Shown: positions 7,525 through 13,914, counted from the first letter of the stretch. The stretch: DNA of 64,000 nt from Polaromonas sp. (GCF_043778355.1 NZ_JAYWHI010000031.1:60202-124201), one strand, 5' to 3'. The notes: generated from the sequence alone by a model not told the origin. Translations and numbers: made by a program.

Positions 7525-9108
7525 TTAGTTCTTCTTAATATTCCAGTACACCTGCGCGCCGCCTGGCACCAGGCCGGAGATGTTGCTGCGCAGTGCCGCC
7601 GGATTGTTGTACTGGCCCAGATGTACATGCGAGGCGGTTTCAATCGCGCGTGTCTGCAGTTGCTCTGCAAGCTTCTTCTTCTCGGCCTCGGTGCCGGCCT
7701 GGGCGAATTTGACCTTCAGTTCCTCGATGACCTTGTCATCCTGCCAGCCAAACCAGCCCTTGTCGCCGGTGGCATTGAGCATGGCCATGGTCAGCGGGTT
7801 CTGGATGTCGCCGGCGGTCCAGGCTGTCATGAAGGCGTTCCAGCCACCCTTGTCCGGCGCATCTTTCTTGGCGCGGCGTGCCAGCAGCGTGGCCCAGTCG
7901 GACTGCTGCATGTCCACCTTGAAGCCAGCGGCTTCAAGCTGCTGCTTGGCCACCAGCGGCAGCTTGGCGATCGAGGCCAGGTCGGTCGGCCGCATCAGCA
8001 CAATCGGCTCACCCTTGTAACCGGCATCGGCCAGCATCTGCTTGGCCTTGACCGGATTGGCCATGCCGGTATAAATACCGGTGTTGTCACTGGCGTAAGG
8101 CGTGCCGCAAGGAAAAATGCTTTTGCAGTACTTGTACATGCCGGGTGCGCCGACCTGGGTTTTCAGGAAGGCCTCCTGACCCATGGCCACCATGGCGGCC
8201 TGGCGGATCTTCACATTGTCAAACGGCGCGTGCAGGTGGTTGAAGCGGAAGATGTATTGCAGACCGGCTGGCTGCGCATCGACAATCTGCACATCCTTGG
8301 CGGCCTTGAGGGAGGCGTACTGCTCAAAAGCTGGCTGCTCAATGATGTCCACCTCCCCGGCGATCAGCGCATTGAACTGGGTCTGCGGATCACGGATGAT
8401 GATCCACTCGACCCGGTCCAGATAGACGTTTTTGCCGCCGGTTGTACCGTTGGGCGCTTCGCTGCGCGGCTTGTATTTGTCGTTCTTGACATAGACCAGT
8501 TTTTCACCGGGCTTGTACTCGGCCGTGACAAACTTGTAGGGGCCCGAGCCGATGTTCTCCTTGATCTGCTCACTGCCAGGCGTGGCCGCGATACGCGCCG
8601 GCATGATGAAGGGCACATTTGACGAAGGTTTGCCGAGTGCTTCGAGCATCACACCAAACGGCTGGTTGAATTTGATGATGAAGGTCTTCGCATTGGGCGT
8701 CTCATAACTGGCCAGACTTTTGGCCATGACGCCGCCAAAACTGTCGCGGCTGGCCCAGCGCTTGAGCGAGGCCACCACATCCTCGCTGGTGACCGGTTTT
8801 CCATCATGGAACTCAAGCCCGTCGCGCAGGGTAAAGGACCAGACCTTGTTGTCCTTGGACGCGCTGTAGGTGTCCACCATCTGCGGCTTGACCTTGCCTT
8901 CCAGATCGGTGCCGAACAAGGTGTCGTAAATCATGTAACCGTGGTTGCGGGTCACAAACGCCGTGGTCCAGACCGGGTCCAGAATGGTGATGTTCGCGTG
9001 CGGCACCACTTTGAGGGTTTTGGCCTGGGCCTGGACGGCAGCGGGCAGCAGCAAGGAGGACAGCAGCGCGGCAGAAGTGGCCAGAGCGACAAGGGAACGA
9101 CGTTTCAT
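7525..9108 (-). CDS. ABC transporter substrate-binding protein, family 5
   Basis: Signal peptide, IYDTLFG, FTLRDGLEFHDGKPVTSEDVVASLKRW, GSGPYKF. Confidence 0.92.
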   Translation of the reverse strand: MKRRSLVALATSAALLSSLLLPAAVQAQAKTLKVVPHANITILDPVWTTAFVTRNHGYMIYDTLFGTDLEGKVKPQMVDTYSASKDNKVWSFTLRDGLEFHDGKPVTSEDVVASLKRWASRDSFGGVMAKSLASYETPNAKTFIIKFNQPFGVMLEALGKPSSNVPFIMPARIAATPGSEQIKENIGSGPYKFVTAEYKPGEKLVYVKNDKYKPRSEAPNGTTGGKNVYLDRVEWIIIRDPQTQFNALIAGEVDIIEQPAFEQYASLKAAKDVQIVDAQPAGLQYIFRFNHLHAPFDNVKIRQAAMVAMGQEAFLKTQVGAPGMYKYCKSIFPCGTPYASDNTGIYTGMANPVKAKQMLADAGYKGEPIVLMRPTDLASIAKLPLVAKQQLEAAGFKVDMQQSDWATLLARRAKKDAPDKGGWNAFMTAWTAGDIQNPLTMAMLNATGDKGWFGWQDDKVIEELKVKFAQAGTEAEKKKLAEQLQTRAIETASHVHLGQYNNPAALRSNISGLVPGGAQVYWNIKKN

Positions 9109-9240
9109 GACAAATTTTCCTTAGAAACAAGGGGTGGAACAGTCAGGCCGGAAGCACTGGGGCCCCCTGGGTAATGTAACCATAGTTCAGATGCAATATT
9201 CAAGCCACCGGGAAACCACCGTGACAGCGTCCGGTCGGCC

Positions 9241-9954
9241 TCAGATCACACCCAGCCAGCAGGCGCGTTGAATCGCCGACATCTTGTTGTCCACTCTGAG
9301 TTTGGCCATGGCGTTGGCCATGTGGTAATTGACCGTGCGCTCGGTGCAGCGCAGGCGCTCGCCGGTCTGTCGGGCGGTCAGGCCTTCGAAAGCAAGCGCC
9401 AGGCATTCGCTCTCGCGCGGACTGAGCGGACTGCTGGCAGCGGCCAAGGTGCGTTTGAACAGGGGCCAGATGTTGAGCGCCGACCAGACCAGCGCGGCAG
9501 CTTCAGCCCGGTCATGGAACTGGCGAGGACTGAACATGAAACATTCGAAGGCGCGTCCAGAAGGCAGGGGAAACTCAACCCGCACCACGCTCTGAAACCC
9601 GTGGGCCAGCCACAACAGACGCCAGCGGTCGCCCCCCGTGTCTGAATTGCCAATGTGCTGCCAGGCCACCATCGGTGCATCGGACTCCCGCCAGGGCGCG
9701 CCAAAGTCCTGGCTTTCGGCGAGGGCCAGCGCTGGCTCCTGCAGGCGCGGGGGGTGGACCGCTGCCACCACCCGGTCCTGGCGCTGCCCGAAAGGGTCAG
9801 GCCCCAGGACAACGACGGCCTCGACCGCATAGTCGCGCAGGGCAGAAATCCAGTCGGCCAGCATGCTGTCCAGCGCAAGACTGTCAAAGTTGACAGGTTG
9901 GCGCACTTTCAGTTTTCCCCCAGAATTGCGCCCATGTGTGGAGAACTGTCCCAA
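9241..9954 (-). CDS. LuxR-family transcriptional regulator with divergent autoinducer-binding-like N-domain
   Basis: C-terminal HTH LSPRESECLALAFEG...TERTVNYHMANAMAKL; N-domain retains P-x-x-W and HG; start uncertain (9954 TTG, 9906 GTG or 9864 ATG). Confidence 0.85.
   Translation of the reverse strand: MGQFSTHGRNSGGKLKVRQPVNFDSLALDSMLADWISALRDYAVEAVVVLGPDPFGQRQDRVVAAVHPPRLQEPALALAESQDFGAPWRESDAPMVAWQHIGNSDTGGDRWRLLWLAHGFQSVVRVEFPLPSGRAFECFMFSPRQFHDRAEAAALVWSALNIWPLFKRTLAAASSPLSPRESECLALAFEGLTARQTGERLRCTERTVNYHMANAMAKLRVDNKMSAIQRACWLGVI
9879..9898. promoter_or_regulatory. lux-box-like palindrome at luxR 5' end
   Basis: Minus strand ACCTGTCAACTTTGACAGTC, CTGT-N8-ACAG spacing; 15/20 identical to the site upstream of cqsA. 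Confidence 0.5.
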
Positions 9955-10201
9955 AATTTATTCATGATCCAGAATTTCAGATTGCCGGGCAGAACCAGAT
10001 GACAAATTCATTGGCCTTGGCGCTTGACGGACATAGTGACGCGAGGAAAGGGCCGGTTTACAGCTTGACCCCATCGGAAACAAGCGCGTCCTATTTTGCA
10101 CCCGCCACAGTATCGTCGCCGGTAGCCGAAACAGAAACGCTGCATGCATTCGCGAAAGCGGGTGTTCGTACAAGATTGATCATTGACCGAGCGTCCGTGC
10201 C

Positions 10202-11638
10202 GTGGTCTCGGCGAAGGGGATGCCGGGCGGGCAGCGCCCCCACAACGATGACAATTCGCCAGCAAAGCCTAGCCCGACCGCCTGTGTGAACAAACCCGCA
10301 TCCTCCTGCCCCGGCACCACCCATACTCTGCGGGAGGTCCAGACGTCAACGACGCTGCGGGGATCGGCCTGGAGCCGCGTCGTGCGCTGGCTCAGGGAAG
10401 AAGTCATCACCTCGCCGCTGGTGCCGGTACTTCATCCCACGCCCCTGCGTATCAAGGGTCTGGGCTTGTTCACATTGATCGGGCACCCGCTGTTCTGGTG
10501 GGTCTGGTCCGTGTTGCTGCCCCAGCCCTATGAAAATCTGGGTCTCCGGATTTTTACGAGCTCATTGGGACTGCTTTTAATCAGCAACCGGATCAGCCGC
10601 CAGCCGTCGAGTGCTCTTGCCGGCCATGTCTTCAGTGCGGTGATCTGGTTTGAGTTGCCATTTCTTTTTTCCTACATGTACCTTTGCAATGGGGGCAACA
10701 CGGCATGGCTGTCGAGCATGGCGGCAATGATCCTGATCTACTATTTTGTGACGGACTGGCGCATTGCCACCTTGGGTCTGGCTGCAGCAGCCCTGCTGGC
10801 AGGCGCCGTCTTCTGGTTATGGGGTCCCGCCGTGCCACCCATGACGACAACCACCCTGCTGACTGGCGCGATGGTGATTTTTTTCTGTGTGAGCATGGGC
10901 CTCCTGCTGGGCTTGTCTTCGGCCAACCTCCGGCGCGAGCAGTTGAACCACACGCTGACGACCATGGGTATCATGGCGCACGAATTGCGTACCCCCCTGG
11001 CCACCATGTCGCTGATAGGAGACGCTTTGAGAAATGAAGCCCGGCAGCCCAGGAACGCAGGGAGCGATCAACGGTTTGAGCAACTCGTGATCAGACTGCA
11101 CAGTATGGTGCGTACCATGAACCAGCAAATCGACACTCAAATCGTCAACGCGGGCCTGCAGCGCCTGCCGACCCATAAGGAAACAGTGACGGCCTCTGAA
11201 CTGCTGCGCAATGTGGTCAGGGACTATCCCTACCGCAATTCGCGGGAACGGGACAGCGTCGTGCTGGTGCTTCGCAAGGACTTTTCCTTCGAGTCGTCCG
11301 GTCGGCTTTTTACCCAGGTCATCAACAACCTCCTGAAGAATGCTTTTCGTTCTCTGGCGGCAGGCAGTTCTTCCCCCAATCCGGGCGATTTGCGTATCGA
11401 AGTCGGCGTTCTCAACGGCTCCGGTCGAATTTTCATCGAGGATCAGGGGGTTGGCATCGCACCTGAATTGCAGACCCGGATTTTTGAGCCCTTTTTTTCC
11501 ACCGATTACGGTACCGGTCACGGTCTGGGACTGGCCTTTTGCCAGCAGGTCGTGCAAAGCGCTCATGGGAGCATCCGGGTCAAATCGGAACCCGGCCGCG
11601 GCGCCCTGTTCATCATTGAGCTTCCAGTCCTGACCTAG
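10202..11638 (+). CDS. cqsS: CqsS/LqsS-type membrane sensor histidine kinase (alpha-hydroxyketone receptor, no receiver domain)
   Basis: About 6 hydrophobic segments with PQPYENLGLR (CqsS-type PQxYENLGLR), H-box AHELRTPL, N-box NLLKNA, G-boxes DQGVGI and GHGLGL; start uncertain (10202-10220 or later). Confidence 0.85.
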   Translation: MVSAKGMPGGQRPHNDDNSPAKPSPTACVNKPASSCPGTTHTLREVQTSTTLRGSAWSRVVRWLREEVITSPLVPVLHPTPLRIKGLGLFTLIGHPLFWWVWSVLLPQPYENLGLRIFTSSLGLLLISNRISRQPSSALAGHVFSAVIWFELPFLFSYMYLCNGGNTAWLSSMAAMILIYYFVTDWRIATLGLAAAALLAGAVFWLWGPAVPPMTTTTLLTGAMVIFFCVSMGLLLGLSSANLRREQLNHTLTTMGIMAHELRTPLATMSLIGDALRNEARQPRNAGSDQRFEQLVIRLHSMVRTMNQQIDTQIVNAGLQRLPTHKETVTASELLRNVVRDYPYRNSRERDSVVLVLRKDFSFESSGRLFTQVINNLLKNAFRSLAAGSSSPNPGDLRIEVGVLNGSGRIFIEDQGVGIAPELQTRIFEPFFSTDYGTGHGLGLAFCQQVVQSAHGSIRVKSEPGRGALFIIELPVLT

Positions 11639-11653
11639 AAGAATGCGCTTCCT

Positions 11654-12631
11654 ATGAGTTTTCCTCTTTTTCGCCGTCCGGGGACGGTCGTTTTTCTGGA
11701 TGATGATCAGGCCTATCTGGAAATGCTGGCCATGGTGCTGCCGGAGCAATGGCATATCCGGTTCTATCTGCGGCCACAGGTTTGCATCAACCAGTTGCAG
11801 CAGGAGCCTCCGCTGTGGGAGGCAGACGCCTGGGCGCAGCAGGAGATCATTGACAACTGGCGCGCAGGCAGGCCGCTGATACCGCAAATCCTGCGCTACT
11901 GGGCGACCGAGCCGGGGCGTTTTGGGCTGACCCAGGTATGTGTCTTTGACTACGCGATGCCCGGTATGGACGGCCTGCAGGCACTGGGCGAACTCACCGA
12001 CTGGCCAGGGGGACGGGTGCTGCTGACGGGTCAAGCCGACGAACATGTAGCGGTCAGTGCCTTCAACCGGGGACTGATTGACCAGTTCATCGCCAAGCAG
12101 ACGCCCGATATTTCCCAGTACCTCATCGCGGTGGTCCAACGCATGATTGACAGGCCGCAAATGCGCCATTCCCAAATCTGGCGAACCGCGCTCAGTCAAC
12201 CGCAGCACGCCTTGCTACAGGTGCCCTCGGTCGCGCGACAACTTGGCAGTCTGGCCAGCGCCCACTGGGTGGAGCATGTGGTTATTGGCCAGCCTTTCGG
12301 CATTTTGGGCATGGATGCAGAAGGGCGTGTCAGCTGGCTGCAACTGGAATCTGCTGCAGACCTGGCGGAACTGGCGGAGCTGGCTGAAATCCAGGGCGTG
12401 GGCGCTGCGGAGGCGGCAGATATCCGGGATGGCCGGACACTGGTGGATCTGGAGCTCCAGCAGGCCTTGGGGCAGTTAGGCCCTGCCCGGCGGGCTCAGG
12501 CGTTTTCAATCGGCCATGAAGGTTCGTTGCTGGCCGCATTGTTCCCGGTTGACTCCTCCGCAAACCCACCCGGACTGACAGGCTACGGCCAGTGGCTCAG
12601 ACAACACGGCCACCGCACAGTCCAGGACTAG
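11654..12631 (+). CDS. lqsR: LqsR-like response regulator
   Basis: VVFLDDD, FDYAMPGMDG phospho-acceptor, LLTGQADE, AFNRGLIDQFIAK as in LqsR; no HTH output domain; 15 bp downstream of the kinase. Confidence 0.8.
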   Translation: MSFPLFRRPGTVVFLDDDQAYLEMLAMVLPEQWHIRFYLRPQVCINQLQQEPPLWEADAWAQQEIIDNWRAGRPLIPQILRYWATEPGRFGLTQVCVFDYAMPGMDGLQALGELTDWPGGRVLLTGQADEHVAVSAFNRGLIDQFIAKQTPDISQYLIAVVQRMIDRPQMRHSQIWRTALSQPQHALLQVPSVARQLGSLASAHWVEHVVIGQPFGILGMDAEGRVSWLQLESAADLAELAELAEIQGVGAAEAADIRDGRTLVDLELQQALGQLGPARRAQAFSIGHEGSLLAALFPVDSSANPPGLTGYGQWLRQHGHRTVQD

Positions 12632-13914
12632 GATTTTCTGCCGCCATCCTGATTGCCAGCCACTTCGGCAGCTCGTGCACGTCGGGCGATTGGCCAGTCC
12701 CAGGGCTTCACCACAAGCGCCACCTCACGCGTTGCTGCCTCGACGTGGTCGAGTTCGGCGTCGGTCAGGGCCGCGTGCAGCGTGAGCCGCACCATCGCGC
12801 GGTTGCGGCTGGTGGCGGGCGCGCAGAAGATCGAACCGACCACACCGCGTGATTCCAACTCGTCGCGCAACACCATGGCGGCCGCCTCCGTGCCTGCTTC
12901 GAGCGCAATGATCTGTTCGGTGCCGTGGTGAATGGGAAAACCCGAATCGGCAAGACTCTGGCGCAAACGCGCGGTGTTCGCATGCAGGCGCTGGCGCGCC
13001 TCGTCACTGTCGCGGATCACGCCCAGGGTCGCTGACAAACCCGCGATCTCGTGGGGCAGCAGGGAAGAACTGAAAATATTCGGAAAACTTGAAATGAGCG
13101 TGTAGTAGCGCATGCTGGCCGGCGCCGTAAAAAACCCGGCCCTGCCGGCGAAAGCCTTGGCAAGACTTGCGGTAATGAAGTGCACCCGATGCGTCACGCC
13201 AAGCTCCGCGCACAATCCGGCACCCCGAGGTCCATGCGTGCCCAGCGAATGCGACTCATCGACCACGATCATACTGTGATGACGCTCCACCACCTCCAGG
13301 ATGTCCAGCAACGGGCACAAGGCCCCCGTGGTGCTGTACACCGAGTCGACCACAACAACACCGGGGCCGTGACGCTGCAACATGCGGTCCAGGTGTTCGG
13401 GGTCGTTGTGGCGGAACGCGTGGGCTGGCGCCTTTGCGGCACGGGCGCCTTCCCACAAGGACATGTGCGCCAATCCGTCGAGGTAGACCGGCGTGTCCTC
13501 GTCCGCGATGATCTGCAGCAACCCCATGTTGGCCGTGTAGCCAGACTGGCAGAGGTAGCCGTCCTCCTTGCCAAGCCAATGCGACAGATCAGCCTCAAAC
13601 GCATGCACAGGATGGCCGCCCAGAAGAAATACGCCGGACTGCACAACAGCCTCGCTGTCCTGGCGCAGCGCAGTAATCTGCGCCCCAACAATATCCGGAT
13701 GACCGGTGACGTTGAGGTAGTCGTTTCCGTCCAGACGCACCGCATCAGGTCCCACTGCACGGCCGTGCAGCACAAATTTGCCGCCCCACTGGTGCTCCCA
13801 TCGGGGGGCAAAGTCGCGAGTGATACGTTGCTGCAAATGTGCGGACAACGCGGGCTCGACCGCTGGTTTTATTGAAACATCCTGGGCAGAGTGATCAAGA
13901 AGAGGTGTTGGCAT
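12628..13914 (-). CDS. cqsA: CqsA/LqsA-type alpha-hydroxyketone autoinducer synthase (PLP-dependent, AONS-like fold)
   Basis: CQSGYTAN, FRHND, VVDSVYST, VDESHSLGTHG and PLP-lysine motif TASLAKAF match CqsA rather than BioF; convergent with lqsR. Confidence 0.9.
   Translation of the reverse strand: MPTPLLDHSAQDVSIKPAVEPALSAHLQQRITRDFAPRWEHQWGGKFVLHGRAVGPDAVRLDGNDYLNVTGHPDIVGAQITALRQDSEAVVQSGVFLLGGHPVHAFEADLSHWLGKEDGYLCQSGYTANMGLLQIIADEDTPVYLDGLAHMSLWEGARAAKAPAHAFRHNDPEHLDRMLQRHGPGVVVVDSVYSTTGALCPLLDILEVVERHHSMIVVDESHSLGTHGPRGAGLCAELGVTHRVHFITASLAKAFAGRAGFFTAPASMRYYTLISSFPNIFSSSLLPHEIAGLSATLGVIRDSDEARQRLHANTARLRQSLADSGFPIHHGTEQIIALEAGTEAAAMVLRDELESRGVVGSIFCAPATSRNRAMVRLTLHAALTDAELDHVEAATREVALVVKPWDWPIARRARAAEVAGNQDGGRKS

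Follow-up and report, generated by a model that had tools for sequence, protein, structure and literature searches.

In a 64,000-nt stretch of DNA from Polaromonas sp. (GCF_043778355.1 NZ_JAYWHI010000031.1:60202-124201; hereafter, the window), a gene for a LuxR-type regulator lies on the minus strand and is divergent from the gene of an LqsS-like sensor histidine kinase, which is followed by genes for an LqsR/PhcX-family response regulator and for a CqsA/LqsA-type alpha-hydroxyketone autoinducer synthase (Table 1). The window thus holds what is typical of an Lqs/Cqs-type cluster, namely the synthase, an adjacent membrane kinase and an LqsR-type regulator, together with an additional gene, which is the subject of this work. 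Our results reveal that this gene encodes a LuxR-family transcription factor with a GerE helix-turn-helix (HTH) and a divergent GAF-like N-terminal domain, devoid of the residues that bind N-acyl homoserine lactones (AHLs), and that it is a fixed component of a module also comprising an LqsS-type kinase, an LqsR/PhcX-type regulator and usually a CqsA-type synthase. The LuxR-type protein is therefore presented here as a candidate DNA-binding output of the alpha-hydroxyketone pathway, and we assign a probability of about 0.45 to the reading that places it alongside or below the LqsR-like regulator in the pathway.

Table 1. Features of the LuxR-type gene and its neighbours (positions counted from the first nucleotide of the window)
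Feature	Coordinates	Strand	Basis
LuxR-type regulator, coding sequence, 221 aa + stop, most likely GTG start	9241..9906	-	Homologue lengths; GGGGGA 9 nt upstream of GTG 9906; family profile
GerE/LuxR-type HTH, aa 159-221	9244..9432	-	Pfam PF00196 1.4e-15; hhalign 95%; conserved E165, L169, G175
Long connecting helix, aa 133-158, conserved W141, W147, P148	9433..9510	-	DSSP on AlphaFold2 models; conservation
N-terminal GAF-like alpha/beta domain, aa 1-132, uncharacterised family	9511..9906	-	AlphaFold2; Foldseek; no sequence-level match in Pfam or PDB
5' extension of the mechanical reading frame (from TTG 9954), probably untranslated	9907..9954	-	Most homologues do not cover it
Window-specific stretch between the divergent genes, without counterpart in relatives	9968..10416		blastn
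LqsS-like sensor histidine kinase: membrane sensor + HisKA + HATPase, without receiver	10202..11638	+	Pfam; adjacent in 68/76 loci
LqsR/PhcX-family response regulator, 325 aa	11654..12631	+	PDB 6sy9 E 6e-18; Pfam receiver domain only
CqsA/LqsA-type alpha-hydroxyketone autoinducer synthase (pyridoxal phosphate-dependent)	12628..13914	-	NF005526; PDB CqsA

Calling of open reading frames (ORFs) in the window yielded a frame of 237 aa with a TTG start (9241..9954, minus strand). A search of 5.8 billion proteins returned 810 homologues, and the best 120 of these (69-96% identity) are mostly 221-226 aa long and span 92% of the ORF; translation therefore most likely starts at GTG 9906, giving the 221-aa protein on which all residue numbers are based, and the first 16 codons of the longer frame are probably untranslated, the corresponding stretch being the short divergent intergenic region in relatives. 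A hidden Markov model (HMM) of the family had a single match in the window, the LuxR-type ORF itself (E 1e-104), with no second member. Named homologues belong to Polaromonas and Ramlibacter, and among sequencing runs the sequence was present in metagenomic DNA runs only (biofilm, sediment), no RNA run containing it.

The C-terminal part of the protein is a LuxR-type DNA-binding domain, as the sequence-only reading of this DNA had recognised from an E-x3-L-x5-G pattern. The Pfam GerE profile matches aa 160-214, and the segment RESECLALAFEG supplies E165-x3-L169-x5-G175, with the same spacing as E178, L182 and G188 of TraR, residues that are invariant in TraR and LasR; the three are conserved across the family, and this part aligns with a TraR/LasR profile in hhalign. 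The HTH was also the only portion recognised in Pfam and NCBIfam scans of the protein, which matched no GAF-family Pfam profile either, and the only one to find matches when phmmer and HMM searches were run against PDB sequences. The autoinducer-binding profile Autoind_bind (PF03472), a search for which had been proposed beforehand, gave no match at E<=10 for the window protein, nor at E<=1 in 52 diverse members of its family, and was precomputed for 0 of the 120 homologues. Furthermore, a profile of the N-domain found no LuxR receptor chain and no relevant match among PDB sequences. The hhalign comparison between the family N-domain and the N-domain profile of TraR/LasR reached a probability of 0.5% (E 0.12, out of register), and only the HTH was aligned when full profiles were used; this canonical profile is narrow, since the search seeded with TraR and LasR gave their close relatives only (PF03472 clusters). 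Residues conserved within the family are P36, R45, P52, W82, W95, G103, R109, E121, W141, W147 and P148.

Equivalents of the canonical AHL-contact residues were sought in a MAFFT merge of the family and TraR/LasR N-domain profiles, in which the numbering of the TraR and LasR sequences reproduces W57, Y61, D70, P71, W85, G113, E178, L182 and G188, and the alignment from strand 2 to strand 3 is of low confidence. TraR W57 and Y61 have no counterpart, and D70/P71 correspond to A59/L60 within the segment HPPRLQEPALALAESQDFG (aa 51-69), no conserved Asp-Pro being present, which agrees, within the uncertainty of the register, with the earlier claim that these positions are replaced; the M/W pattern of plant-responsive solos, likewise said to be missing, is absent from the merged alignment. 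Among W57, Y61, D70, P71, W85 and G113, only the equivalent of W85 is retained (W82, a tryptophan in 38 of the 52 members), while TraR Y53 corresponds to H51 (H, Y or F across the family), G109 to G103 (kept in 47/52) and G113 to V107. The sequence-only reading had the N-domain keep a P-x-x-W motif and the glycine of an HG pair: the tryptophan and a conserved glycine do stand, but the motif is P-x-x-x-W (PMVAW) and the glycine is the equivalent of G109, not of G113. Provided that the strands are aligned in the correct register, R109 and E121 would occupy positions at which T115 and A127 line the pocket of LasR, pointing to a polar rather than a greasy site. Because the canonical contact residues are absent and the Autoind_bind domain is unrecognised, an AHL is an unlikely ligand, as the sequence-only reading had supposed.

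The structure predicted for the full protein by AlphaFold2 from the 52-sequence alignment is of high confidence (predicted local distance difference test, pLDDT, 96.7; predicted template modelling score, pTM, 0.91), and comprises a helix (10-22), strands 30-36 and 45-51, helices 53-64 and 70-74, a strand (80-84), a helix (94-101), strands 106-114 and 118-126, the long helix 133-158 and the HTH, that is, an alpha/beta/alpha GAF-like domain connected through a long helix to the HTH. The top 32 Foldseek matches of this model in the PDB are all quorum-sensing (QS) LuxR receptors, namely TraR, QscR, RhlR, SdiA, LasR and CviR (E 2e-9 to 1e-5, template modelling score, TM, 0.4-0.55 over the full length). 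Modelled alone (pLDDT 95.4), the N-domain shows the antiparallel sheet flanked by helices of a GAF fold and resembles two groups about equally, at 9-18% identity and an overall TM of 0.5-0.65: GAF domains (3hcy, 3eea, 3o5y and 3k2n; TM 0.5-0.65, E 4e-5 to 2e-4) and the ligand-binding domains of RhlR, QscR, TraR, CepR2, LasR and VqsR (TM 0.5-0.62). The models thus point to the architecture of a quorum-sensing LuxR protein, with a sensor of GAF-like fold that would either have departed from the AHL family or have been foreign to it from the start.

Judged by its sequence, the N-domain defines a small family of its own. In a phmmer search with aa 1-156 against 1.84 billion cluster representatives (clusters at 50% identity), 93 were matched at E<=1e-3, mostly from Polaromonas, Ramlibacter and other Comamonadaceae, and every full-length member carries the same HTH. 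No Pfam or NCBIfam model matched the sensor domain in scans of the window protein and the 52 members, and literature searches for this family, or for a link between LuxR proteins and Lqs-type systems, found no description in the library covered. Pipeline labels on the homologues read 'SolR' (JGI) or 'CsgD family', other names of cluster members being metagenomic and uninformative; labels of the SolR type are wrong for these genes. A subgroup of about 317-349 aa (P0157, P0170, P0179, P0184, P0189, P0195 and P0197) has a conserved additional N-terminal extension of about 130 aa ahead of the GAF-like domain, without a Pfam match (alignment columns 1-140), and family members are also found on large conjugative plasmids (P. 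naphthalenivorans CJ2 pPNAP01 and Polaromonas JS666 plasmid 1).

The conservation of the genomic linkage was assessed in a genome scan restricted to one genome per species, which provided 80 loci encoding 67-94% identical proteins in Polaromonas, Ramlibacter, Caenimonas, Hydrogenophaga and unclassified Burkholderiales, counts being limited to loci with enough flanking sequence; the scan used the closer sequence set with a search pattern lying in the HTH, so its 577 relatives are not a count of the family. An LqsR-like gene is next to the LuxR-type gene in all 75 informative loci and an LqsS-like kinase gene in 68 of 76, and CqsA is encoded in the cluster in 57 of 68. The 11 loci without cqsA, 8 of them also without the kinase, all keep the LuxR-type and LqsR-like pair. 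The term 'solo', by which the sequence-only reading had referred to this gene, is consequently misleading. Two loci of the Ramlibacter terrae H242 chromosome (L023 and L048) contain fragmentary kinase, LqsR-like and CqsA matches (104-288 aa) next to an intact LuxR-type gene, which suggests decaying lqs genes or assembly frameshifts.

The association extends to distant members of the family (31-52% identity), which are often encoded directly 3' of LqsR-like genes, the two reading frames overlapping by 4 nt or being 0, 3 or 14 nt apart; kinase genes are nearby and cqsA is mostly absent, the homology of these neighbours having been verified by phmmer (E 1e-31 to 1e-107). On the JGI contig encoding P0127, a kinase gene, an LqsR-like gene and the LuxR-type gene (4-nt overlap) form a triplet that is repeated in tandem; these triplets lie downstream of a Methyltransf_2 gene. 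Locus L081 (1135-5329) has two LqsR-like paralogues around one kinase gene, followed by the LuxR-type gene; in L083 and L087 the LqsR-like gene abuts the LuxR-type gene with a kinase gene nearby; in L084 the LqsR-like gene precedes the LuxR-type gene; L088 has the LqsR-like and LuxR-type pair only, and L085 repeats the arrangement of the window, cqsA included. The fact that distant members share an operon with the LqsR-like gene, the codons of the two touching or overlapping, is in keeping with jointly acting proteins.

Regarding the partners encoded in the window, the synthase exceeds the 428-bit cut-off of the CqsA equivalog model NF005526 of NCBIfam (552.9 bits) and matches CqsA of the PDB with an E value of 5e-95. 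The kinase, here termed LqsS-like, has a hydrophobic N-terminus, and its sensor part is a putative homologue of those of CqsS and LqsS. The response regulator matches PDB entry 6sy9, deposited as 'Response regulator' and identified here as LqsR of L. pneumophila; because Pfam finds a receiver only, we infer that the window protein has no DNA-binding domain. The earlier statement that luxI is missing from the window was upheld: neither a LuxI-type synthase, searched for with an HMM built from LasI and LuxI sequences, nor a canonical AHL-binding domain was found in the 64 kb.

In order to compare the evolution of the components, pairwise protein distances were calculated by domain in 56 clusters and related by Spearman's rho. 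CqsA and the membrane sensor of the kinase vary together (rho 0.69 for all pairs, 0.90 for close pairs), as expected of a signal and its receptor, whereas CqsA and the N-domain of the LuxR-type protein do not (0.22 and 0.26, respectively); this is the informative result of the comparison. The N-domain follows the LqsR receiver (0.86 and 0.61), and its correlation with the catalytic part of the kinase is 0.73 for all pairs and 0.13 for close pairs; among close pairs its mean distance is 0.12, as low as that of the LqsR receiver. Single loci illustrate the pattern. Between the window and L001, identity is 95% in the flanking genes and 94% in the N-domain, but 56% in the kinase sensor and 74% in CqsA; relative to L019, L022 and L026, it is 71-73% in the N-domain, 72-74% in the sensor and 79-81% in CqsA. 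The CqsA and sensor alleles of the window are nearer to those of L015, L019, L022 and L026 than to those of L001. Hence, CqsA (12628-13914) and the kinase sensor (10382-10940) diversify together and independently of their flanks, in a pherotype-like manner.

The region between the divergent genes is peculiar in the window. blastn comparison with L001, L003, L004 and L008 places a gap at 9968..10416, where the window has 450 nt and these relatives about 110 nt, so that about 340 nt more separate the LuxR-type and kinase genes than in relatives, in which the distance from the kinase ATG to the start of the LuxR-type gene is about 58 nt. No other copy of the stretch and no Rfam match to it were found. 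The stretch takes the place of the initial ~20 codons of the kinase gene, the homologous part of which begins near 10370 in a comparison of the N-terminus with that of L004; the likely kinase start is GTG 10382, with GGAG 7 nt upstream, GTG 10202 being the alternative. In 19 aligned relatives from Polaromonas to Ramlibacter, a near-invariant box ATTGTC(A/C)C precedes the start of the LuxR-type gene by about 25-30 nt; in the window it reads ATGGGCGC (within 9925-9945, minus strand, aligned with the upstream regions of L001-L078), and it may represent an operator or a -10 element. When the divergent region was scanned, neither a meaningful palindrome, promoter or terminator nor a match in Rfam emerged. 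The G+C content is 0.586-0.596 over the LuxR-type and kinase region (8001-12000) versus 0.62-0.67 in the flanks, and identity to other Polaromonas is 90-97% for the SBP_bac_5 and M20 genes of the flanks versus 68-83% for the lqs genes; the lqs cluster may be an insert that is more mobile or evolves faster.

With regard to function, our preferred reading, in which the LuxR-type factor acts with or downstream of the LqsR-like regulator, would have the membrane kinase sense the hydroxyketone and pass its phosphorylation state on to the LqsR-like regulator, which would in turn control the LuxR-type factor through the GAF-like domain, more likely by direct protein contact than by a small-molecule relay; the factor would then bind DNA and set the transcription of its targets, probably including the divergent lqs genes. 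Several observations weigh against this proposal. The family copy on Polaromonas JS666 plasmid 1 (L090, 9896-10534) stands alone beside an IS5 transposase gene, and for that on pPNAP01 of P. naphthalenivorans CJ2 (L089, 266362-266949) the LqsR-like gene is 1.9 kb away and there is no kinase homologue. The Lqs and Jqs clusters of Legionella and Janthinobacterium have been described with synthase, kinase and regulator genes only, and LqsR therefore does not universally need a LuxR-type partner. In addition, the conserved R45, R109 and E121 could just as well make the GAF-like domain a binding site for a small molecule, and the correlation between the N-domain and the LqsR receiver may simply reflect slow, vertical evolution of both.

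The sequence-only reading had proposed that the ligand is the alpha-hydroxyketone made about 3 kb away; in this case, the LuxR-type protein would be a direct cytoplasmic receptor, whose GAF-like pocket binds the product of CqsA and thereby, in the manner of TraR or LasR with AHLs, triggers dimerisation and DNA binding. The full-length fold is indeed that of the quorum-sensing LuxR receptors, cqsA is present in the cluster in most close relatives and in the distant L085, and hydroxyketones, being hydrophobic, might plausibly enter the cytoplasm. Signals other than AHLs are sensed by some LuxR-type proteins, and VqmA, which responds to DPO, is among the weak matches; moreover, the binding of an invariant head group would not need co-variation with CqsA. 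The proposal is nevertheless weakened by the redundancy with a membrane sensor for that signal class encoded next door, by the phyletic pattern, as the family persists with LqsR-like genes in the 11 close loci without cqsA and in most distant loci, and by the co-divergence result, the kinase sensor and not the N-domain being the part that tracks CqsA. If the alignment register holds, charged R109 and E121 facing the pocket would also be odd for an acyl-chain tunnel. On balance, we consider direct binding of the hydroxyketone rather unlikely.

A second possibility is that the protein is a local regulator that senses another small molecule, such as a nucleotide or a metabolite, through the GAF-like domain, and controls the lqs genes from the divergent promoter as a second input independent of contact with the LqsR-like protein. 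The match of the N-domain to generic GAF sensors as much as to LuxR ligand-binding domains and the conserved charged triad R45/R109/E121 speak for it, together with the divergent arrangement, typical of local regulators, and the conserved ATTGTC box in the short intergenic region of relatives. We doubt this account, as it leaves unexplained both the position of distant members in the same operon right behind the LqsR-like gene, the codons of the two overlapping or abutting, and the survival of the pair after loss of kinase and synthase, and it comes with no candidate ligand.

A ligand-independent factor, with an N-domain devoted to folding and dimerisation and with regulation exerted by expression level, would agree with the very confident AlphaFold2 model obtained without a ligand and with the presence of the ligand-binding domain of VqsR (5xhx) among the fold matches, VqsR being an orphan regulator of the LuxR type that reportedly does not bind AHL; the strong conservation of the N-domain, charged residues included, and its strict linkage to signalling genes make this improbable. 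A bolder version of the coupling to LqsR is a private relay, in which the phosphorylated LqsR-type regulator, through its degenerate GGDEF-like output domain, makes, binds or hands over a nucleotide-type messenger, or docks, and the GAF-HTH protein reads the signal and turns hydroxyketone quorum sensing into transcription; we regard it as a long shot that, if true, would make the LuxR-type protein the long-sought output device of LqsR/PhcX-family regulators. Lastly, an ordinary AHL-responsive LuxR solo that eavesdrops on the AHLs of neighbours, as the JGI label 'SolR' and the overall architecture might suggest, is effectively excluded by the PF03472 (0/52) and hhalign results, the missing W57, Y61, D70 and G113 equivalents and the absence of luxI from the window.

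Compared with the quorum-sensing AHL receptors (TraR, LasR, QscR, RhlR, SdiA and CviR; PF03472 + PF00196), the LuxR-type protein has the same two-domain build at a similar size (221 vs. 234-250 aa), and it keeps the E/L/G triad of the HTH and the equivalents of W85 and G109. It differs in a sensor without sequence relation to theirs, in the loss of W57, Y61, D70 and G113, and in a gene that has no luxI partner and is tied to a two-component hydroxyketone system. It shares with the non-AHL LuxR solos (PluR/PauR of Photorhabdus and the plant-signal regulators OryR/XccR/PsoR) and with VqsR of Pseudomonas aeruginosa the condition of a LuxR-type regulator whose sensor has drifted from AHL binding, and the domain of VqsR (5xhx) is matched with a TM of 0.58. 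However, those proteins can still be recognised as belonging to PF03472, despite substitutions in the motif (e.g., M/W at positions 57/61), whereas the domain of the window protein is unrecognised as PF03472 and lacks the M/W pattern. A Comamonas LuxR solo reported to respond to sulfonamides was also considered, and belongs to a different family with a recognised autoinducer-binding domain. Thus, LuxR-type regulators with non-AHL sensors are of a kind already known, while a LuxR-type regulator with a sensor domain from this undescribed family is new.

Possible functional analogies for a kinase and a response regulator that depend on a separate transcription factor to bring their output to DNA are provided by RcsA, BglJ and GadE, auxiliary partners (LuxR-type) of RcsB, and by the second-messenger relays RpfC/RpfG to cyclic di-GMP to Clp, and VpsT. 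The likeness is one of analogy, as RcsA, BglJ, RcsB and VpsT gave matches at the level of the HTH only, without homology outside it.

The closest comparison is with the Lqs, Cqs and Jqs clusters (lqsA-lqsR-hdeD-lqsS of L. pneumophila, cqsA-cqsS of V. cholerae and jqsA-jqsS-jqsR of Janthinobacterium) and with PhcX of Ralstonia, with which the window shares a CqsA equivalog, an LqsS-like kinase without receiver and an LqsR homologue; Polaromonas has been listed among the carriers of lqs clusters (PMC3376566). The difference lies in the LuxR-type gene, as the literature accounts of these systems consulted here give a synthase, one or more kinases and a regulator, and do not describe such a gene as a component (including PMC3376566 and PMC10653808). 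LqsR and PhcX have a degenerate GGDEF-like output domain, in which no diguanylate cyclase activity was detected, and control large regulons by a mechanism said to await elucidation (PMC10653808); the term 'DNA-binding' is absent from the text of that report. In Legionella and Ralstonia, regulators of the LqsR/PhcX family govern traits such as virulence, motility, competence and biofilm formation, and a transcription factor family genetically tied to them in many environmental Betaproteobacteria provides a concrete candidate partner. In these clusters, the synthase and the kinase sensor diversify like pherotypes and the downstream parts stay constant, and the LuxR-type factor may be the missing link in LqsR/PhcX signalling.

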